Assembly (NCBI GenBank): GCA_964355175.1
Contig: CAYHBZ010000002.1
Coordinates: 119,189 to 183,188, forward strand
Length of the DNA stretch: 64,000 nt
Source: an uncultured Gammaproteobacteria bacterium
GTDB lineage: Bacteria > Patescibacteriota > Patescibacteriia > Magasanikbacterales > GWA2-37-8
Direction: 5' to 3'
The notes under the pieces were generated by a model. The model made no database searches. It was not told where the DNA came from and saw nothing but the letters and a program-made list of their open reading frames with translations. A program made the position numbers and the translations under genes. Shown here piece by piece: positions 1,701 through 57,300 of this stretch. Position 1 is the stretch's first letter. Each line of letters opens with the position of its first letter.

Positions 1701-4700
1701 ATGCAGACTGCTACTGCAACCAAGACTTTTAAAGTCGACGACGAGTTCAAGTACTCTCCAAAGGGATTACGCTTTCCCCGACATTATACCAAAGATGGCG
1801 TCAGCCCTTTTGATATGTTTACTTATGAGCTGCGCTCTTCAATAATTCGTCAAACAAGCGGACAAGTAATCTTTGAAATGCACGATGTGGAAGTTCCAAA
1901 GCAGTGGACTCAAGTAGCTACTGATATTTTGGCTCAGAAATATTTCCGCAAAGCCGGTGTACCTCAGTATGATGAAAATGGTGTGGCCAAAATGAAAGCT
2001 GACGGTACAGTAGAAACAGGTCCAGAAAAAAGTATGAAGCAGGTAGCGCATCGCTTGGCTGGTACTTGGCGCTATTGGGGAGAAAGATATGGTTATTTTG
2101 CCACCGCTTTGGATGCCCAGGTATTTTATGAAGAATTGGTCTACATGCTTATCAATCAAATGGTAGCTCCAAATTCTCCGCAGTGGTTTAATACTGGTTT
2201 GTATTGGGCTTATGGTATTAATGGTCCAGCTCAAGGTCATCACTATGTAGATCCAGACAATGGTATTCTTACTCGTTCCAAAGATTCTTATTCTCATCCT
2301 CAACCACACGCTTGTTTTATCCAATCTATTAAAGATGATTTGGTAAACGAAGGCGGTATTATGGATCTATGGGTGCGCGAAGCTCGCCTTTTTAAATATG
2401 GCAGTGGTACTGGTACTAATTTTTCTAATCTACGCGGTAACGGAGAAAAACTTTCTGGTGGTGGACGCAGTAGTGGTCTGATGAGCTGGCTCAAAATTGG
2501 AGACAGAGCCGCTGGTGCTATCAAGTCCGGTGGTACGACTCGTCGCGCTGCGAAAATGGTAATTTTAAATGTAGATCATCCAGATATCGAAGCCTTTATT
2601 GATTGGAAAGTAAAAGAAGAAGAAAAGGTAGCCGCTCTGATTGCGGCCGGATACGAAGGCGGATATGAAGGTGAAGCCTATCTCACCGTTTCTGGTCAAA
2701 ACTCGAACAATTCCGTGCGTGTTTCCCAAGACTTCATGGAAGCAGTAGTAAAAGACAATGGTTGGGAATTAAAAAATCGCACCGATGGTGGTGTGGCCAA
2801 AAAAATGAAAGCTCGTGATCTTTGGGATAAAATCGCGGTGGCCGCTTGGCGCTGTGCTGATCCGGGTGTGCAATTTGATACGAATGTAAATGACTGGCAC
2901 ACTTGTCCAGCTTCTGGTCGTATCAATGGCAGCAATCCTTGCAGTGAATATATGTTCCTCGATGATACTGCTTGTAATTTGGCGTCCATGAACTTGGCTC
3001 ATTATTATGATCCAGAAACTGCCACTTTTGATGTGGAAGGTTATAAATATACTACTCGCGCTTGGACTGTAGTACTTGAGCTTAGTGTATTGATGGCTCA
3101 ATTCCCAAGTGAAGAGATTGCTCAGATGAGTTTTGAATTCCGTACTCTTGGTTTGGGCTATGCTAATATTGGTAGCTTGCTAATGACCGCCGGTATTCCT
3201 TATGATTCGCCAGAGGCTTTGGCTTTTGCCGGTACTGTCACCGCTCTCATGACTGCTCAGTCTTATGAAACTTCCGCTGAGATGGCTAGCTACTTGGGTA
3301 CCTTTCTACGCTACGGAGAAAACCGCGAACACATGTTGCGTGTAATGCGCAACCACCGTCGCGCCGCTTTCAACGCCCATGAAGATGAATATGAAAGTCT
3401 GGCTATCAAACCAGTCGGTATTGATCCGCAGTATGCTCCGGCTTATTTGCTCGTAGCCGCTCGTGAAGCTTGGAATAAAGCCCTAGAGATGGGTGAAAAA
3501 TATGGTTACCGCAATGCTCAGACTACCTTGCTCGCTCCTACCGGTACTATTGGTCTGCTTATGGACTGTGCTACTACCGGTGTAGAACCAGATTTCGCTT
3601 TGGTGAAATTCAAAAAATTAGCTGGTGGCGGATATTTCAAAATTGTAAATGAAGCGGTGCCGGTGGCTCTAAAAACTTTGGGATATAATGAAAGTGAAGT
3701 AAGTGATATCGTAGATTACCTCAAAGGCCGTGCTACTCTCAAAGGTGCACCCGCAATTAATCCTCAGAGTTTGACTGCCAAAGGATTGACCGCGATTGAT
3801 TTGGAAAAAATTGAAAAATCATTGCTCAGCGCGTTTGAATTACAATTCGTATTCAACAACTGGACTTTGGGCGAAGAAACCATGGCTCGTCTTGGATTTA
3901 GCAGTGAGCAATATTTGGACCCAAATTTCAACTTCCTCAAAGCGATTGGTTTTAATGATGATGAACTCGAAATTGCTAATGAGTATGTTTGTGGCGCGAT
4001 GGCCATCGAAGGTGCTCCACATCTCAAGACCGAACATTACAAAGTATTTGATACCGCCAACAAAAATGGTAAAAAAGGCAAACGCTTTATTCACTATTTG
4101 GGCCACATCCGTATGATGGCCGCGGTACAACCTTTCTTGTCCGGTGCTATCAGTAAGACTATCAACATGCCAAATGAGGCCACTGTGGAAGATGTAAAAA
4201 TTGCTTATATGGCTTCCTGGAAATTGGCTCTCAAAGCTAATGCAATTTATCGCGATGGCTGTAAGATGTCTCAACCTTTGGCTTCTAAATCTGATTCTAA
4301 AAAAGATAAAGTAGAAGAAGTAAAAGTTGAAATGGTAGAAACAAAAACTGAAGTAATGAATGAAATCAAAACTTCTGAATCTACTGTTTCTGCTCACAAA
4401 ACTTTTTCACTTTCCAGTCAGGATCAGAGTGTGGTAAATCAGATGGTAAGTGAAGATCATGCTCAAATAAAATACGCACATGATGGCTCTAGCCAAGGAA
4501 CAAAAATTTATGTGCACGGAGAACAGCGTCAGATGCCGTACAAACGTAGCGGTCTCACTATCAAAGCCAAAGTAGCCGGACAGAAAATTTTCTTGCGCAC
4601 TGGTGAATATCCAGATGGCCGCCTCGGTGAAGTATTTATTGATATGTATCGTGAAGGCGCGGCTTTCCGTAGTATGCTAAATTTGTTTGCAATTTCTATT

Positions 4701-6074: not shown

Positions 6075-6155
6075 GCTCGGGTGGTGTAATGGTAGCCACA
6101 AGGGACTTAAAATCCCTCGCCGAAAGGCATGCGGGTTCGAGTCCCGCCCCGAGCA
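6075..6155 (+). tRNA. tRNA-Leu (anticodon TAA)
   Basis: Manual fold. Acceptor GCTCGGG/CCCGAGC, D-loop with GG, anticodon stem AGGGA/TCCCT with loop CTTAAAA, long variable arm CGCCGAAAGGCAT, and T-arm GCGGG-TTCGAGT-CCCGC. CCA is not encoded. Confidence 0.8.
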
Positions 6156-27523: not shown

Positions 27524-27556
27524 TTAAATAAAAAAATAACACTTTGTAGTGTTATT
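27524..27556 (-). terminator. terminator for the tRNA-Lys/tRNA-Arg transcript
   Basis: On the minus strand, AAATAACACTACAAAGTGTTATTT is followed by a T-rich run. Confidence 0.5.
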
Positions 27557-27561
27557 TGTTG

Positions 27562-27633
27562 TGCCCTCGGCAGGAGTCGAACCCACATCCCCAGGTTCGA
27601 AGCCTGGTGTCCTATCCGTTGAACGACAAGGGC
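27562..27633 (-). tRNA. tRNA-Arg (anticodon TCG)
   Basis: Manual fold of the reverse complement. Acceptor GCCCTTG/CGAGGGC, anticodon stem CCAGG/CCTGG with loop CTTCGAA, and T-arm TGGGTTCGACTCCTG? (GGTTCGA). 72 nt. Confidence 0.7.
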
Positions 27634-27662
27634 GTAAAACCCTCGTCAATGCGAGGGTTAAG

Positions 27663-27735
27663 TGGGCCGGCCGGGGATCGAACCCGGGACCTTATCCTTA
27701 AGAGGGATCTGCTCTACCAGCTGAGCTACCGGCCC
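27663..27735 (-). tRNA. tRNA-Lys (anticodon CTT)
   Basis: Reverse complement GGGCCGGTAGCTCAGCTGGTAGAGC..CTCTTAA..CCGGGTTCGATCCCCGGCCGGCCCA. Acceptor and T-arm are canonical. The anticodon stem has one 27:43 mismatch. An intergenic hairpin AACCCTCG-TCAAT-GCGAGGGTT separates it from tRNA-Arg. Confidence 0.65.
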
Positions 27736-27744
27736 GAAAGGTGA

Positions 27745-28512
27745 TTACTCTGAATCACCGGTTTGTTTTTTCATTATTTCAATCTTTGGTCCTTTCCACG
27801 CTTTTATTTTTAGCGCGGCTTCGGCCGCTTCGGTTTGGGCTTCTTGTTTACTGCTACCCATGCCCGAGGCAATTAATTCTTTTTCTAAAAATATACCTAC
27901 CTTAAACATTTTGTCATGATCTGGTCCACTTTCTTCAAGTACTCTATAGGTTGGAGTGACACCTATTAATTCTTGAGCGGATTCTTGGAAGCGACTCTTG
28001 GCGTCCATATACAGACCATTTTCTAAAATGTAAGGTAATTTAGTAAGAACATAGCGGGCAATGAATTGCTTGGCACCATCATATCCTTGATCTACATATA
28101 TGGCACCCACTACTGCTTCGAAAGCATTCGCCATGATATAGTCTCGAGCTTTGGTGCCAGCGTCTTTGGCTTCACCGTGGCTGAGAAATAGATATGGCTC
28201 CATGCCAATTTCATACGCGACGCTGGCCAGCATTTTGGCATTTACCAGAGCGGCGCGCCAGTTGGTGAGTTCACCTTCTGGATTTTCATATTGATTGTAA
28301 AGATATTCAGTGACGACTAATTCTACCACAGCATCTCCTAAAAATTCAAGTCTTTCGTTTTGGCCCAGAGCGAAGTCATGGTGCTCATTGAGATAAGAGC
28401 GGTGCACGAAGGCTTGGTATAAGATGTTGATGTTTTTGAATTTTACTCCTAGTTTATTTTCTAGTAAGGGGAAATTTTTTTCCTGTACTTCGGGTAAACT
28501 GTTGATGTCCAT
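27745..28512 (-). CDS. rnc: ribonuclease III
   Basis: RNase III signature ERLEFLGDAVVELVVTEY and a C-terminal dsRBD. Confidence 0.93.
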   Translation of the reverse strand: MDINSLPEVQEKNFPLLENKLGVKFKNINILYQAFVHRSYLNEHHDFALGQNERLEFLGDAVVELVVTEYLYNQYENPEGELTNWRAALVNAKMLASVAYEIGMEPYLFLSHGEAKDAGTKARDYIMANAFEAVVGAIYVDQGYDGAKQFIARYVLTKLPYILENGLYMDAKSRFQESAQELIGVTPTYRVLEESGPDHDKMFKVGIFLEKELIASGMGSSKQEAQTEAAEAALKIKAWKGPKIEIMKKQTGDSE

Positions 28513-31938: not shown

Positions 31939-32048
31939 GGCTTGTTACGCTGATAACCCGCAAAGAGTGGGTTTGGCCTCTGACCGGACAATAGCGTCCG
32001 TCGTTCTTTCCCAATTGGCAGCTATGCCTTAAATAGTCAGAGGACAAG

Positions 32049-32750
32049 ATGAATTTGAAGGATTTCGCCAATCAGTTCGGTATCTCGGCCATCGCTCGTC
32101 GGCACTTCGCCTATCGCAAGCCGGTGTCCGATGCCGAACTGGGCGGGTACTCGACCCGTGGTGCGTTGACCTATATGCGGGCGCTCGAAGCGTCGCGCAT
32201 GGGTCTGTCGCACCTCGAAGCCCACAAGGCTTTCGAACAGGGTCGGCAGTTGGTGGAGCTGGGCATCACGCCCGGCTTGATCATCACCGGTTGCGATCAG
32301 CGCAACCAGGATGGTGGCCACGCCACGGCTGAAGGCATCTCCTTGGCGGGTACAACGCAGCCCTCGGTGTTCACCAGTCCCGCCGTCACCTATCCGCACT
32401 ACACCTCTTTCGAGATGGTGAAGTCGGCTCTGGAGACGCATGGCGATCTGGCTGTTCACCGCGTGCTCGCTGGCCAGCTCCACGGTATCTGGTCCGAGCC
32501 GGCGTTGGTCTTCGACGCTCGCATCCTCGCTGCGGTTCAGGCGGATTATGGGGTCGACGGCCCCGTTCTCTTTGACCTGAATTTCGAACAGATCACGTTG
32601 CTCTACTTTCGCCTTGTGCGGAAGTTGGAGCTCTGCGAGATCCCGTTCGATGACAAAGCGTGGATGCCGAAGTTGGGCGGTGGAGTCGTGATCTCCGCTG
32701 ACCGCAAGACCGCGATGGAATTCGCGGCTGACCTGACGGTCGTTGAGTAG
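32049..32750 (+). CDS. hypothetical protein, 233 aa, encoded in a high-GC island (island A)
   Basis: Stop-free ORF with high-GC codon usage (CTG/GGC/GCC/CGC) in a ~38% GC genome. SD GAGGA 6 nt upstream. No family recognised. Confidence 0.6.
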   Translation: MNLKDFANQFGISAIARRHFAYRKPVSDAELGGYSTRGALTYMRALEASRMGLSHLEAHKAFEQGRQLVELGITPGLIITGCDQRNQDGGHATAEGISLAGTTQPSVFTSPAVTYPHYTSFEMVKSALETHGDLAVHRVLAGQLHGIWSEPALVFDARILAAVQADYGVDGPVLFDLNFEQITLLYFRLVRKLELCEIPFDDKAWMPKLGGGVVISADRKTAMEFAADLTVVE

Positions 32751-38202: not shown

Positions 38203-38340
38203 ATGATGCCTGGGGCTGTGAAAATTCTTCCTGAGTGGATAGGTTTTGTAGTTGATTTCATCATCGATCATCCCAAGAAATTGGGTTTTCTGATCGGCCT
38301 GCTGATTGTAGGAGGCGCCGTTTGGTGGCTCTGCTCTTGA
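38203..38340 (+). CDS. possible 45-aa small membrane peptide
   Basis: MMPGAVKILPEWIGFVVDFIIDHPKKLGFLIGLLIVGGAVWWLCS with a C-terminal TM. Lies in a locally GC-richer patch with GGAG upstream. Speculative. Confidence 0.3.
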   Translation: MMPGAVKILPEWIGFVVDFIIDHPKKLGFLIGLLIVGGAVWWLCS

Positions 38341-38468
38341 GCCTCCATCCGTCAACGCGCTCCCCCGACTTGGTCGGGGGCGGGAAGGAAGTTAAAACCA
38401 CCCACTACTCACTTTGGGGCTAAGATTTGGCCATAGAGTGAGGAGGATTTTCGGGTGGTTTTGCTTTC

Positions 38469-38497
38469 TTGACAAAATAGCTCAAAAGGTATATAAT
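38469..38497 (+). promoter_or_regulatory. perfect consensus sigma70 promoter TTGACA-17-TATAAT for rpsA
   Basis: TTGACAaaatagctcaaaaggtaTATAAT. The leader contains hairpin TCCTGA-CTAAGA-TCAGGA. Confidence 0.6.
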
Positions 38498-39857: not shown

Positions 39858-40328
39858 ATGCAAGCGAAAAGGATGGGTCTAGCGTCTGATCGTCTCGCCG
39901 GAATCCTGTATCCAGTGGAATCACTGGTGGTGCAAGACAAGCCGGTGTCCGCAAACTTCGGACTGGATCGAATCGAGTTCGTTCCGGTTCTCAAACAGGA
40001 GGAGAGTTGTATCAGCGGGAAGGAGTTTTTAGGACGCGTGAAGACCTTGGGAGGTGAATTCGGTCTCTGTGACATTGAGGTGTTGATCGGTGACCAACAG
40101 AACCTGTCGACGGATCTGCGTGACAAGGAGATCTACTTCGTCGCGGCTCGAGTTTTTAATCCAACCACGCAAGAGATCAGCATTCCCTACATGGCGTTCA
40201 GCGAAAATCGCCAGAGTTGGGTCGTCCGTTTCCATTCGGTGGGAATCTATCGTGGCGATGGCGATGGCTGTGCCGTCATGGTCTCGATTTTCTACTCGAA
40301 CAGTTTGGTGCCCAGGTTTAAAGCCTGA
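39858..40328 (+). CDS. hypothetical protein, 156 aa, in high-GC island B
   Basis: GC ~55% compared with the host ~38%. RBS context CTAATAGTGGGGGTGGTATG. A host-like promoter TTGACT-17-TACTAT lies upstream. No family recognised. Confidence 0.55.
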   Translation: MQAKRMGLASDRLAGILYPVESLVVQDKPVSANFGLDRIEFVPVLKQEESCISGKEFLGRVKTLGGEFGLCDIEVLIGDQQNLSTDLRDKEIYFVAARVFNPTTQEISIPYMAFSENRQSWVVRFHSVGIYRGDGDGCAVMVSIFYSNSLVPRFKA

Positions 40329-40385: not shown

Positions 40386-40450
40386 TAAAATCACCCACTA
40401 TCGCTATTTAAAAATATTTTAATGTTTTTAAATAGCGTGGGTGATTTTTT
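40386..40450 (+). terminator. long inverted-repeat terminator after island B
   Basis: AAAATCACCCACTATCGCTATTTAAAAA..TTTTTAAATAGCGTGGGTGATTTTTT. Confidence 0.45.
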
Positions 40451-40565
40451 ATTTGAAAAGGCCTTTACTCTTGATTATTTGGAAGTTTTCAGGTAGAATC
40501 ATTGTATTAATTACTACTATATAATAGGATAGTAAAGCGACTGATTTCCTATCTAACTTAAATTT

Positions 40566-42426: not shown

Positions 42427-42453
42427 AAAGATGGCCTAATAAGCCATCTTTTT
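42427..42453 (+). terminator. rho-independent terminator after ftsH
   Basis: AAAGATGGC-CTAATAA-GCCATCTTTTT. Confidence 0.55.
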
Positions 42454-42612
42454 ATTGTTTTATATTGACATTTTCATGTAATCGTGTTATTGTGCTTTGT
42501 TGTTCTTTTAATTGGAGCAGATACATATAAGAAGATTTTTTTAGTCTTTTTATAAGTGTCTGTTCTGGTCTAAACCCAACGCGCTGTGTGCGCAAATTTC
42601 TAGGAGCTTACC

Positions 42613-43191
42613 GTGAGCAAGCAACTGTGGATCATGTGTCTGGTGGCGATCGTGTCTGGCGGTTGCGCTGACTTCAGCGTGCCTTCCGATCTTCATTTCG
42701 CCTGTCCTGAGCAGTCGTCAGATTGCAATGGGTCGGCGGACTGCCAGATTGGTCAGGGTGACATCGTGTCGCACGACACGACCGGCGACATCCAGCCGGT
42801 GCAACTCGGCAACGAGTGTACGCAGAACACCGACTGCGACGACGACCAATGCTGGACCGGCGACTACTGTGTGCTGGGTAAGTGCAAACACGCAGGCTAC
42901 GGCGGTTGTGGCGGTGGTCCAGGCGAGTGTGAAGTCAATTCGGACTGTGATGACGCCAACACCTGTACTACCGACAGTTGCTTCCCGCTGTACAGCTCCT
43001 GCCAGTATCAGGCTTTGCCGTTTCAAGTCTGTGAGGACGGCAATACTTGCTTCGCTGACAAGTTGTGCACCATCGAAGGTGTGTGTGCGGGTACGAACCT
43101 GTGCGATGACGACGACCCCTGCACCTACGATTATTGTGATGATTTCAAGAAGTGCGCGCACAAAGGGCCGATCACCGGCTGTAACCCCTGA
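42613..43191 (+). CDS. Cys-rich lipoprotein with four Myxococcus-type cysteine-rich repeats, in high-GC island C
   Basis: GTG start with SD AGGAG. Signal plus lipobox VSGGC. Four repeats of the C..DCDD..C..D.C....C type (e.g. CEVNSDCDDANTCTTDSCFP) resemble the myxobacterial disulfide repeat. GC ~60%. Confidence 0.6.
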   Translation: MSKQLWIMCLVAIVSGGCADFSVPSDLHFACPEQSSDCNGSADCQIGQGDIVSHDTTGDIQPVQLGNECTQNTDCDDDQCWTGDYCVLGKCKHAGYGGCGGGPGECEVNSDCDDANTCTTDSCFPLYSSCQYQALPFQVCEDGNTCFADKLCTIEGVCAGTNLCDDDDPCTYDYCDDFKKCAHKGPITGCNP

Positions 43192-43258
43192 ACTACTGCT
43201 TTGGGCAATAAAGAAATTGAGCCCAAACAGTGTAGGGAAGCAGCGGGATCTTTAAGAG

Positions 43259-43320
43259 ACCGTTCGCCAACCTACTTTGTTTCCAAATTTTTGGTGACAG
43301 AGTAGGGCGAACGGTTTTTT
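43259..43320 (+). terminator. inverted-repeat terminator after island C (homologous to the one after island D)
   Basis: GACCGTTCGCCAACCTACTTTGTTTCCAAATTTTTGG..GGCGAACGGTTTTTT. Confidence 0.45.
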
Positions 43321-43386
43321 GTTTTTCAAAAATATGCTATAATAATATTCAAGAGGGCAAAGTTAATTGCCAATTGTTATTGCATT

Positions 43387-46146: not shown

Positions 46147-47286
46147 ATGCGTGTTCGTCACACTGAAACCAGAGAGCTATATGCTCAGCCCTCGGTTGGT
46201 TTCTATCGTACTATTGCACTATCATTTTTGGTTTTAACTGTAGTGTTGCTCGGAGTAGTGGTGCTAATTACTTCTAAAAAAGCGACTATTACTATCATGG
46301 CCAAGGAAGATACGCGCAGTGTGAATATGAATGTGAAAGTAGCCGCTATTGCTGACGGCAAAGAAACAATCTCCGGTTTGGTTTCTTCAAGTGTGGTAAA
46401 TTTTTCTCAAAAATATTTTCCTACCGGTTCCAAAACTATCGAAGGTATAGCCGGTGGTGAGGTAATGCTTTTCAATAAGACCAACGAATCTCAAACTCTG
46501 GTAAAGACTACACGTTTATTAACTCCAAGCGGAGTCTTGTTTCGTTTGAGTGATAAAGTAACAATACCTGCCAATGGTGAAATAAAAGTGCAGGTCTATG
46601 CCGATAAGGCCGGCAAGGATAGTAATGTTGGCCCAAGTACCTTTACTATTCCTGGTTTGGCCACTGACAAACAAAAAGTAATTTATGCTCAGAGTACAGT
46701 GGCGATGGACAACGCGGTGCGCCAGGTAGGTATTCTCACGGAAGCAGATGTTCAGGCGGCGCAAAAAGATTTTGAACAAAAAATTAAAGAACAATACGCG
46801 GCCAGCTCTACGGACTCAATGTATAAGGTGGTATCAGTCTTGAACCTCAATCCGATAGTAGATAAAAAAGTGGGTGATGAGGTGGATGGATTTTCTCTAA
46901 GTGGCACTAGTACAGTGGTGGTAGTGAGCTATAATAAACAAAGTCTAAATGATTTGATATCCGGAGCCGTATCTTCCAAGGTGGATGGCAGTTTGGAAAA
47001 AGTGCTCAATATTACCAGTGATCCAAAAGTGGCGATGGCTTCATATAATGCTGTTGGTAATAGTGCGCAGATCTCGGTGAACCAAGATGTGATGGTGACA
47101 CTTGATGCTAACGCTGAAAAACTTTCCCCACAATATTTTATGGGTAAAACAAAAGATGAGATTGAAAGGTATGTTTTTGAGCTTGATCATGTGGCCGGCG
47201 TGCAGGTAGACTTTACTCCTTCGTGGAGTTCTAAAGCCCCAACTGTGCCGGATAAGATCAAGATAATAGTGAAGGATATAAAATAA
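46147..47286 (+). CDS. hypothetical membrane-anchored protein
   Basis: N-terminal TM followed by a beta-rich extracytoplasmic region, downstream of pilB. Confidence 0.55.
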   Translation: MRVRHTETRELYAQPSVGFYRTIALSFLVLTVVLLGVVVLITSKKATITIMAKEDTRSVNMNVKVAAIADGKETISGLVSSSVVNFSQKYFPTGSKTIEGIAGGEVMLFNKTNESQTLVKTTRLLTPSGVLFRLSDKVTIPANGEIKVQVYADKAGKDSNVGPSTFTIPGLATDKQKVIYAQSTVAMDNAVRQVGILTEADVQAAQKDFEQKIKEQYAASSTDSMYKVVSVLNLNPIVDKKVGDEVDGFSLSGTSTVVVVSYNKQSLNDLISGAVSSKVDGSLEKVLNITSDPKVAMASYNAVGNSAQISVNQDVMVTLDANAEKLSPQYFMGKTKDEIERYVFELDHVAGVQVDFTPSWSSKAPTVPDKIKIIVKDIK

Positions 47287-56706: not shown

Positions 56707-56832
56707 AATTTCTAAATTATATCAGGATCTTGACCTTTTGGCTATTTTCTAGTTATATTCCATATAGTTATGTTGGCCGGTAGCGTAGGGTACGCTGATT
56801 CGGCTTAGTGATCGGTCTCTAAGGGGGTGGTC

Positions 56833-57099
56833 ATGCGTAAGCAGACTGGAGTGGATGTGTTGAACACCCGCGAATTCAAGGAGGCTTTGGCGGAGGTTCT
56901 GCAGAAGGCTTTTCCTGACTGGCAGGACGAGACCGAGATCGATCAATTGTCTGTTTGGACGATCTTCGTCGAGCTCAAGTCGGCGCTTGGTCGTCGTGGA
57001 CAGAGCGAAGAACCGGTCAACTTTCCTCGGGTCCACGACATGACGGCTCAGGAGCTCATCCTGAACATGTGCCAGGCGTATGGAATTGTCGCGCCGTAG
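56833..57099 (+). CDS. hypothetical acidic protein, 88 aa, in high-GC island D
   Basis: GC ~58%. RBS context TCTCTAAGGGGGTGGTCATG is nearly identical to that of island B. The track ORF starts at an upstream GTG (56827). Confidence 0.5.
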   Translation: MRKQTGVDVLNTREFKEALAEVLQKAFPDWQDETEIDQLSVWTIFVELKSALGRRGQSEEPVNFPRVHDMTAQELILNMCQAYGIVAP

Positions 57100-57165
57100 G
57101 AGGGTCAGATGCGCGCTCGCGCTCCGCCGCTTTAATAGTGGGCAGGAGGGTGAGTGGCTACTATA

Positions 57166-57226
57166 AACCGTTCACCACCTGTTTTGTTTCTAAATATTTG
57201 GAGATAAAACAAGTGAACGGTTTTTT
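57166..57226 (+). terminator. inverted-repeat terminator after island D (homologous to the one after island C)
   Basis: AAACCGTTCACCACCTGTTTTGTTTCTAAATATTTGGAG..GTGAACGGTTTTTTG. Confidence 0.45.
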
Positions 57227-57300
57227 GTTTAAATTTTTTTTAAAATGGATTGCCAAAATAGGTTTTTTACATTATAATTAAGGTGTAATAATTTTTTGGT

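Follow-up and report, generated by a model that had tools for sequence, protein, structure and literature searches.

Between ftsH and a membrane-protein gene that ends 5 nt before pilB, the 64,000-nt stretch of contig CAYHBZ010000002.1 analysed here (the window, from a Candidatus Magasanikbacteria member of the Candidate Phyla Radiation, CPR) carries a GC-rich gene for a small, cysteine-rich, predicted lipoprotein. The question raised by this locus is whether the gene is a recent foreign insertion or a resident of the slot, and what kind of genetic unit it forms. An earlier note on this DNA had read it as a myxobacterial-type lipoprotein gene inserted at this point. The analysis presented here points to another answer, which we hold to be the probable one, if by no means certain: the locus would be a self-contained monocistronic cassette encoding a rapidly diversifying surface lipoprotein, autonomously transcribed and swapped among related lineages. 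The features of the locus, all on the plus strand of the window, are the following; the basis of each call is given in brackets, L001 is the locus of a sister strain and L021 a relative with an empty slot.

42427-42451, + strand: intrinsic terminator of ftsH, left boundary of the cassette (terminator scan; 9-bp stem and T run).
42465-42493, + strand: cassette promoter, TTGACA-17 nt-TATTGT with TG 5' of the -10 (promoter scan, 10/12 matches).
42512-42568, + strand: long hairpin of ~23 bp in the 5' untranslated region, UTR (conserved prediction in orthologues).
42581-42593, + strand: small GC-rich hairpin, GCGC-loop-GCGC (just 5' of the Shine-Dalgarno sequence).
42602-42606, + strand: Shine-Dalgarno sequence AGGAG, 6 nt 5' of the GTG start (direct sequence reading).
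42613-43191, + strand: open reading frame (ORF) of the Cys-rich predicted lipoprotein (192 aa, GTG start, GC 0.57, GC at third codon positions, GC3, 0.70).
42613-42666, + strand: predicted signal peptide with lipobox VSGG-C, Cys18 (conservation of the Cys in 14 family members).
42667-42816, + strand: low-complexity tether, residues 19-68 (low conservation in alignments; holds an 8-aa indel relative to L001).
42817-43188, + strand: four CTDC-type cysteine repeats (motif positions; match to PF00526).
43192-43235, + strand: 3'-UTR hairpin P1 (begins directly after the stop codon).
43236-43258, + strand: purine-rich linker GGGAAGC..CG..TCTTT between P1 and P2 (conserved in the alignment).
43255-43326, + strand: hairpin P2 (~25 bp) with TTTTTTGTTTTT, the cassette terminator (fold; covariance model, 96 bits).
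43335-43343, + strand: extended -10 (TGCTATAAT) of the membrane-gene/pilB operon, right boundary of the cassette (comparison with L021).
57163-57232, + strand: P2-type terminator after the 90-aa GC-rich ORF 56827-57099, called island D (covariance model, 74.5 bits).

The non-coding parts of the cassette are conserved on both sides of the gene. The promoter elements TTGAC and TG-TA---T were invariant in eight orthologous loci, and a long leader hairpin of 19-23 bp was predicted in all eight orthologues (z -3.1 to -6.7), in two sequence types. A small GC-rich stem, of differing sequence, was predicted at the equivalent place in all orthologues, and purine-rich equivalents of the Shine-Dalgarno sequence were present in all of them. 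The motif GTTCTTTTAATTGG, found at 42502-42515 just before the 5'-UTR hairpin, has only two copies in the window, the second one in the leader of another GC-rich gene, island B. On the 3' side, hairpin P1 was predicted in nine of nine orthologues at the corresponding place, and its inner stems vary in sequence with the pairing kept (TTTGGGC/GCCCAAA vs TCGG/CCGA and CTAG/CTAG). Hairpin P2 showed 84-100% identity among 10 loci. At 43259-43318 its predicted energy is -38.4 kcal/mol (z -9.2), and T6GT5 comes next; downstream of the stop codon there is thus a stable GC-containing hairpin with a U tract, as in intrinsic terminators. A search of the window with Rfam at gathering thresholds returned three tRNAs only, and permissive Rfam searches of the cassette and of the related locus L061 gave sub-threshold chance matches only (e.g. 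RybB, 21.5 vs 40 bits). The conserved promoter and the strong terminator indicate that the cassette is built as an autonomous transcription unit. Its parts are, in order, a sigma-70-type promoter, a leader of ~115 nt with the long hairpin, the Shine-Dalgarno sequence, the lipoprotein ORF and a 3' UTR with two hairpins; P2 with its U tract would stop the transcript shortly 5' of the membrane-gene/pilB promoter.

The earlier note had described an ORF of about 60% GC with a GTG start and an AGGAG ribosome-binding site, and this description agrees with our measurements: the GC content of 42613-43191 was 0.572, with a maximum of 0.61 in 200-nt windows, and the Shine-Dalgarno sequence stands at 42602-42606. 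The GC3 of 0.70 compares with 0.37-0.42 in ftsH, the 322-aa membrane gene and pilB, and with a median of 0.38 over those 47 window ORFs that reach 100 aa; the GC anomaly extends over ~42570-43250. In the sister strain (L001, Logan SRR22387846), whose DNA is 92% identical over 1.8 kb and whose gene arrangement is that of the window, the orthologue starts with ATG at the position of the window GTG, and the two proteins are 89-93% identical, with an in-frame indel of 8 codons. The ratio of non-synonymous to synonymous substitution rates (dN/dS) of the lipoprotein gene was 0.20 for the window and L001, 0.13 for L023 and L026, and 0.14 for L027 and L051. Close allele pairs of the gene are under purifying selection (dN/dS 0.13-0.20), and the + strand ORF 42613-43191 is a real gene.

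The family was recovered by scanning metagenomes for the hairpin pattern and by searching with a profile; it comprises at least 14 protein clusters, with members of 150-260 aa that end in ...P-I-x-x-C-x-P. The identity of two flanking genes was confirmed by the Pfam families recorded for their orthologues (FtsH, AAA and Peptidase_M41; PilB, T2SSE), and the order ftsH, Cys gene, 323-aa membrane gene, pilB was found in L001, L023, L026/32, L027/37, L051, L056, L061, L062, L063 and L064. The identity of FtsH and PilB divides the hosts into three groups: clade 1 (window, L001, L021, L023 and L063), clade 2 (L026/32, L027/37, L051, L061, L062 and L064) and L056, which stands alone. The slot is empty in L021/L022, a lineage nested in clade 1 with an FtsH 95% identical to that of the window, and both outgroups carry the gene. 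In L021, TGCTATAAT comes directly after the ftsH terminator, whose T tract abuts the membrane-gene promoter at the point corresponding to the T tract of the window cassette. As L021/L022 are nested among carriers, the empty slot would most simply be a loss. The family, its leader and its 3' hairpin fill the slot in all relatives with available context bar this nested lineage, so that the window allele was in all appearance inherited or exchanged within the clade. A recent island would be expected to combine atypical composition with absence from close relatives and a homologue in a donor; the composition is indeed atypical (GC3 0.70 vs 0.37-0.42), whereas 10 related loci hold the gene and no candidate donor exceeds 47% identity. 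The comparison of loci thus marks the gene family as an old resident of the slot, neither a recent nor a private insertion. The placement between ftsH and a pilB-linked membrane gene in the earlier note is correct, and its reading of that placement as an insertion does not hold, with the slot filled in three host groups.

Although the position is stable, the coding content of the slot is not. FtsH is 93% identical between the window and L023 whereas the Cys protein is 32% identical; between L023 (clade 1) and L032 (clade 2) the corresponding values are 81% for FtsH and 67% for the Cys protein. Comparison of the window with L056 gave 84% identity for P1 and 93% for P2, vs ~41% nucleotide identity for the ORF, and P2 is 100% identical between L063 (clade 1) and L064 (clade 2). 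The promoter, the structured leader and the 3' hairpins are thus conserved while the coding region is hypervariable, and the phylogeny of the cassettes is incongruent with that of the hosts. Cassette type and host clade being incongruent, exchange among relatives is indicated. Such exchange is in line with the report that most horizontal gene transfer (HGT) of Patescibacteria occurs within the phylum, with exchange among Patescibacteria as the dominant mode (PMC12455944). The coding region would diversify fast, by substitutions and by gain and loss of repeats, and whole cassettes would be swapped between related lineages by homologous recombination, as expected in a surface-protein arms race with a host or a phage. 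A role as target of a diversity-generating retroelement (DGR) was rejected, as the lipoprotein ORF has no repeat in the window and lies outside any pair of template repeat (TR) and variable repeat (VR). L062 does contain a DGR (776-2207, bAvd and reverse transcriptase) 5' of the S1 gene; its 134-bp TR (590-723) and VR (114-247) are 87% identical, and its target is another gene than that of the Cys lipoprotein, namely the one at the contig start.

Hypervariable surface-lipoprotein loci of small-genome bacteria are exemplified by the variable lipoproteins of mycoplasmas. By analogy, the protein studied here may resemble them in being small, with a repeat-based, fast-changing exposed part, conserved flanks and the same signal-peptide logic, in what would likewise be a host-dependent bacterium of reduced genome. 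Unlike the mycoplasma loci, it is a single copy per genome in one slot, with no phase-variation switch, family array or invertible promoter, and its variation is seen between lineages, known from lineage comparison and not from one clone.

The exposed part is made of cysteine repeats. Their cores, located with the pattern C-[DE]-[DG]-x(1,3)-C-x(2,3)-[DE]-x(1,2)-C, lie on the + strand at nt 42835-42870, 42946-42981, 43030-43068 and 43102-43137 (aa 75-86, 112-123, 140-152 and 164-175). Because the C-x3-[ST]-D lead-in occurs only in repeats 1 and 2, the make-up is one of two long and two short units; the four equal units of ~30 aa (C-x3-DCDD...) proposed earlier are therefore confirmed as four cores, and only the first two fit the long form. 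The sole Pfam match at E <= 10 was PF00526 (Dicty_CTDC), with 19.9 bits and E 6e-4 for the window protein and the best stretch at aa 164-181; the same model matched 14 of 14 family members at E <= 0.01 (best E 1.7e-23). A phmmer (HMMER) search of 1.84 billion representative proteins gave 1367 relatives at E <= 1e-3, and the best 150 of these are mostly proteins of 500-5000 aa with 5-36 matched stretches. Nine relatives from outside the family were checked; all nine scored 96-262 bits on PF00526 and have three alternating repeat sub-types, as do residues 106-190 of the window protein. The framework of PF00526, tandem units of ~24 aa with C-D-D-x-N-x-C-T-x-D-x-C, is present in the family, whose alignment has invariant Cys, D and T columns; longer alleles contain three additional repeats.

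PF00526 includes, in Dictyostelium, proteins of the extracellular matrix and the spore coat and, in bacteria, large surface proteins with many repeats; it has been listed among the repeat families without known structure (PMC8078820). The lipoprotein shares with them the ~24-aa cysteine repeat C-D-D-x-N-x-C-T-x-D-x-C ... C, shares with the relatives P0019 and P0031 the alternation of three sub-types, and like them would be extracytoplasmic and presumably disulfide-bonded. On the other hand, PF00526 proteins have 500-5000 aa and 5-36 repeats, whereas the lipoprotein family has 150-260 aa and 2-7 repeats, is predicted to be lipid-anchored, and is restricted to a CPR clade and a fixed locus. Altogether, these comparisons identify the lipoprotein as a new small family made from a known repeat, and the protein is probably disulfide-rich. 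The assignment to a Myxococcus cysteine-rich repeat (TIGR02232-like) in the earlier note failed: at E <= 10 the window protein had no TIGR02232 or DUF4215 match, either in NCBIfam, where the TIGRFAM models are kept, or in Pfam, and NCBIfam gave no TIGR02232 match for three strong CTDC proteins either. Since at this threshold Pfam returns PF00526 only and NCBIfam nothing, that identity was rejected. The two repeats are alike in being cysteine-rich, extracellular and abundant in Myxococcota; they are nevertheless different repeats, with no match between the CTDC protein and the hidden Markov models (HMMs) of the other.

The N-terminus, MSKQLWIMCLVAIVSGGC, has the layout MSK-QLWIMCLVAIV-SGG-C18, in which, as in lipoproteins, a positively charged n-region precedes a hydrophobic h-region and the lipobox Cys falls among the first ~35 residues; it fits the permissive PROSITE-type lipoprotein rule. 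In the 14 family members Cys18 is invariant and the Gly before it nearly so, which bears out the signal peptide and VSGGC lipobox noticed earlier. The protein is probably a lipoprotein anchored in the membrane through Cys18. It would be exported and held on the outer face of the cytoplasmic membrane, spaced from it by a flexible tether of ~50 aa (AlphaFold predicted local distance difference test score, pLDDT, ~27), and four disulfide-knotted CTDC repeats would be displayed as a binding or adhesion module at the surface.

Several observations weigh against this reading. The window protein alone reaches 19.9 bits on PF00526, below the gathering cut-off of 27 bits. The mature protein has 23 cysteines, an odd number (L001 has 22), and position -3 of the lipobox is Ser, the canonical Leu, Val or Ile being absent there. 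The AlphaFold2 model, built on a 14-sequence alignment, is poor (pLDDT 48, predicted template modelling score, pTM, 0.29), and a profile search of Protein Data Bank (PDB) sequences found no relative at E <= 1. The high rate of divergence might be due to a relaxation of constraint on the middle region and not to positive selection. Finally, for a gene of long residence neutral theory predicts amelioration toward the GC content of the host, and none is seen.

This last point concerns the composition of the gene in all its carriers. In every lineage the GC3 of the lipoprotein gene is 0.54-0.71 vs 0.22-0.43 in the flanks, and the shift affects signal peptide, tether and repeats alike, at all three codon positions. 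It also runs across codon families, with sharp differences in pooled codon usage between the lipoprotein gene and the comparison genes, e.g. 0.68 vs 0.18 for AAG and 0.53 vs 0.06 for TGC. With synonymous divergence between lineages saturated, an old import evolving neutrally would be expected to have ameliorated to a much greater degree. Island B behaves in a similar way. This gene (32049-32750, 233 aa, GC3 0.76) has no Pfam match. Its family is confined to CPR bacteria and counts ~30 clusters, with identities as low as 40%; the named members are from Magasanikbacteria and Doudnabacteria, and the synteny of the gene is conserved (a divergent TrmB-family regulator, island B, a PEP-utilizer). 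Two homologue loci were examined, L066 5001-5705 and L067 2390-3121; the Doudnabacteria copy has a GC3 of 0.67 vs 0.32-0.48 in its neighbours, and the L067 copy is only mildly raised. The leaders of island B and of the Cys gene share GTTCTTT..ATTGG, whose sole two copies in the window are these. By these comparisons the high-GC islands of the window are long-term residents.

The persistence of the anomaly might also be explained if high GC were kept in situ, by selection on the mRNA (stability, structure, or slow translation of rare codons aiding export and disulfide formation) or by GC-biased gene conversion (gBGC) at a recombination hot spot, with no need for a foreign origin. The GC3 of 0.54-0.71 in all lineages despite saturated synonymous sites, the similar behaviour of island B across CPR classes, with conserved synteny in Doudnabacteria, and the documented frequency of cassette exchange all speak for this possibility. 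We nevertheless consider it rather unlikely: all codon positions and even the unconstrained tether are raised, with a composition rich in Ala, Gly, Pro and Val that looks mutational and not translational, the UTR modules within the exchanged unit are AT-rich, against simple gBGC, and the L067 homologue of island B is only mildly elevated. Under the preferred reading of a diversifying, exchanged cassette, the CTDC module would probably have come from a GC-rich lineage rich in such repeats, in an event older than the divergence of the sampled lineages.

The 3' hairpins raise a further possibility. The island D terminator (57167-57230; -27.6 kcal/mol, z -7.4) aligns with that of the cassette (43259-43318) at 82% column identity, and in three stem pairs both partners differ, one of these changes being G-C to A-U; the homology of the two terminators and the compensatory G-C to A-T change had been reported in the earlier note, and the alignment bears them out. 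The L059 copy of the hairpin adds one further compensatory pair, and for the two-arm hairpin pattern shuffled versions of the window gave an expected count of 0.00. From this alignment, P2 behind the Cys gene is judged homologous to the hairpin at 57163-57232. The covariance model has weaker hits behind two other GC-rich window ORFs (40386-40456 and 38393-38470), and by eye all four window sites have in common a P1 hairpin separated by a GGGA-rich linker from a long P2. The homology of these two hairpins to P2 is suggested and no firmer, because their scores of 39 and 17 bits are within the range of any long palindrome (reverse-strand palindromes reach 40-52 bits). The hairpin pattern had no match in viral contigs, and in metagenomes every true homologue of P2 has GC-rich DNA 5' of it.

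The genes next to these hairpins are varied. The ORF of island D (56827-57099, 90 aa, GC3 0.70) has a promoter-like site of its own and the P2-type terminator, and its exact protein sequence is absent from the protein collection. Between the S1 gene and ftsH, a stand-alone GC-rich gene (39858-40328, 156 aa, GC3 0.63) has its own promoter and the long hairpin terminator at 40386-40456; its L023 orthologue is 62% identical (GC3 0.60), and L021 lacks the gene and has a different S1 terminator in that slot. A small cassette between the Lactamase_B_3 and S1 genes holds an ORF for a hydrophobic peptide of 46 aa (38203-38343, GC3 0.51), and in its 3' part (38376-38470) a GGGA linker joins a CCCCCGAC..GTCGGGGG hairpin to the long hairpin after it. 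The same cassette with another peptide occurs at L056 732-991, L021 and L023 are without it, and L021 may retain a decayed 3' remnant; its layout recalls that of type I toxin genes, by analogy. On the minus strand of L059, an ORF for a 194-aa membrane protein (680-1264, GC3 0.82) adjoins a gene of GC3 0.27 and is followed by a P2-type hairpin (1323-1384, reversed coordinates), a further type of cargo. None of the ORFs of 156, 233 and 90 aa was assigned to a Pfam family, nor was the membrane protein of 322 aa.

By analogy with integrons, the GC-rich ORFs could be cargo captured in a common AT-rich expression platform (promoter and leader on one side, the P1-linker-P2 module on the other), with P2 acting as a recombination or recognition site, loosely attC-like, through which cassettes would enter, leave or replace one another. 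Of the GC-rich window ORFs, three to four have a P2-type hairpin behind them (38393-38470, 40386-40456, 43255-43326 and 57163-57232), as has a fifth cargo in L059, the metagenome homologues are all preceded by GC-rich DNA, three slots show presence/absence polymorphism, cassette type and host clade are incongruent, and the P2 stem is nearly invariant despite saturated synonymous sites. We regard the proposal as improbable all the same, since no recombinase, array or target-site duplication was found, the R''/R' consensus of attC is absent on direct inspection of the sequence, the empty sites are imprecise (L021 with another terminator in the S1-ftsH slot and an apparent decayed remnant elsewhere), the 39- and 17-bit hits may be generic long hairpins, and the exchange is accounted for by homologous recombination of the ordinary kind within the conserved flanks. 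The likeness to integron cassettes consists in a short ORF followed by an imperfect palindrome of conserved structure, one type of 3' hairpin behind unrelated cargo, and presence/absence variation. Unlike integron cassettes, each cassette here has its own promoter and stands alone among housekeeping genes, integrase and R''/R' are both absent, and the hairpin with its U tract reads as a terminator. An integron/attC identity was rejected on these grounds (own promoter, single cassette, and arms ACCGTTCGCC/GGCGAACGGT that on direct reading are unlike RYYYAAC/GTTRRRY).

A recent transfer of a myxobacterial TIGR02232-type lipoprotein gene into this genome, between ftsH and the membrane gene, fares considerably worse and seems to us very unlikely. 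It would account for the GC3 of 0.70 vs ~0.38 and for the empty slot in L021/L022. The CTDC relatives located in GTDB genomes are also from Myxococcota or 'Deltaproteobacteria' metagenome-assembled genomes (MAGs) at 14 of 19 loci, with GC 0.55-0.74, and to this extent the high-GC deltaproteobacterial donor proposed earlier is loosely supported. No close donor was found, however, among 15 billion proteins: relatives from outside the family are 31-47% identical, over repeat segments of large multi-repeat proteins only, and the only close homologue (89%) is the syntenic copy in the sister strain L001. With no TIGR02232/DUF4215 match, a slot filled in three host groups, conserved AT-rich UTR modules and an empty lineage nested among carriers, a recent myxobacterial insertion is largely refuted.

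The last candidate, that the true gene is the antisense ORF of 147 aa (42718-43161, minus strand) called at this locus in assembly ERZ4201063 and the + strand ORF is spurious, can be set aside with near certainty, since long ORFs in the alternative frames of this locus are expected in GC-rich DNA, which has few stops there, whereas the sense frame has, over 14 clusters, a dN/dS of 0.13-0.20, an invariant cysteine framework, a signal peptide, a Shine-Dalgarno sequence and an in-frame indel. In GCA_026396535.1 (L023 6455-6724), only the last 89 aa of the 172-aa orthologue were called, as hypothetical protein NT034_00050. Because gene callers mis-annotate the locus in such ways, the lipoprotein family is largely invisible in current annotations.

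Some further features of the neighbourhood were recorded. The ftsH terminator of L027, L061 and L062 forms a long hairpin around a conserved ~80-nt insert (…cctcataacccgctcaaagg…; e.g. L061 ~3150-3260), for which Rfam gave no match; a string similar to part of this clade-2 insert, 'ataacccgc', is present in the island B leader of the window (31953-31961). The gene after pilB (46147-47286, 379 aa) is conserved at that place, 3' of pilB, in all relatives, and has a sub-threshold Baseplate_J-like match (16.2 vs 21.1 bits). The three tRNA genes lie at 27562-27735 (a pair) and 6075-6155, and the GC peak at 27551-27800 is due to the tRNA pair at 27.5 kb.

What sets this locus apart is the combination of conserved modules around hypervariable cargo with a persistent GC anomaly; literature searches on the repeat in bacteria, on GC content and HGT in Magasanikbacteria and on Cys-rich lipoproteins of CPR bacteria found nothing specific. 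The GC and GC3 anomaly is here no mark of recent import, being kept across synonymously saturated lineages, and since it is conserved, in island B as far as Doudnabacteria, composition-based island callers would mislabel such genes. As a bold conjecture, to which we give little weight, autonomous expression cassettes may be present as a set in Magasanikbacteria and perhaps in the CPR at large. In each of them a GC-rich ORF of fast turnover would lie between conserved AT-rich regulatory modules with a common P1-linker-P2 element on the 3' side, and lineages would exchange the cassettes as units. The candidate cargos are the Cys-rich lipoprotein, the 46-aa membrane peptide and the 90-, 156- and 194-aa proteins. 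A dedicated process might then uphold the GC content of the coding part: GC-rich partners, for instance the bacterial host of the episymbiont, could overwrite it repeatedly, or GC-biased conversion could be at work. P2 might be more than a terminator. If true, reduced genomes would contain a kind of accessory-gene system that has not been described before. Attachment to other microbes is thought to be the way of life of CPR bacteria, and almost nothing is known of the molecules that make this contact. A hypervariable lipoprotein with a predicted membrane anchor, present across the clade and encoded next to the type IV pilus operon, is a concrete candidate for interaction with a host, a particle or a phage.

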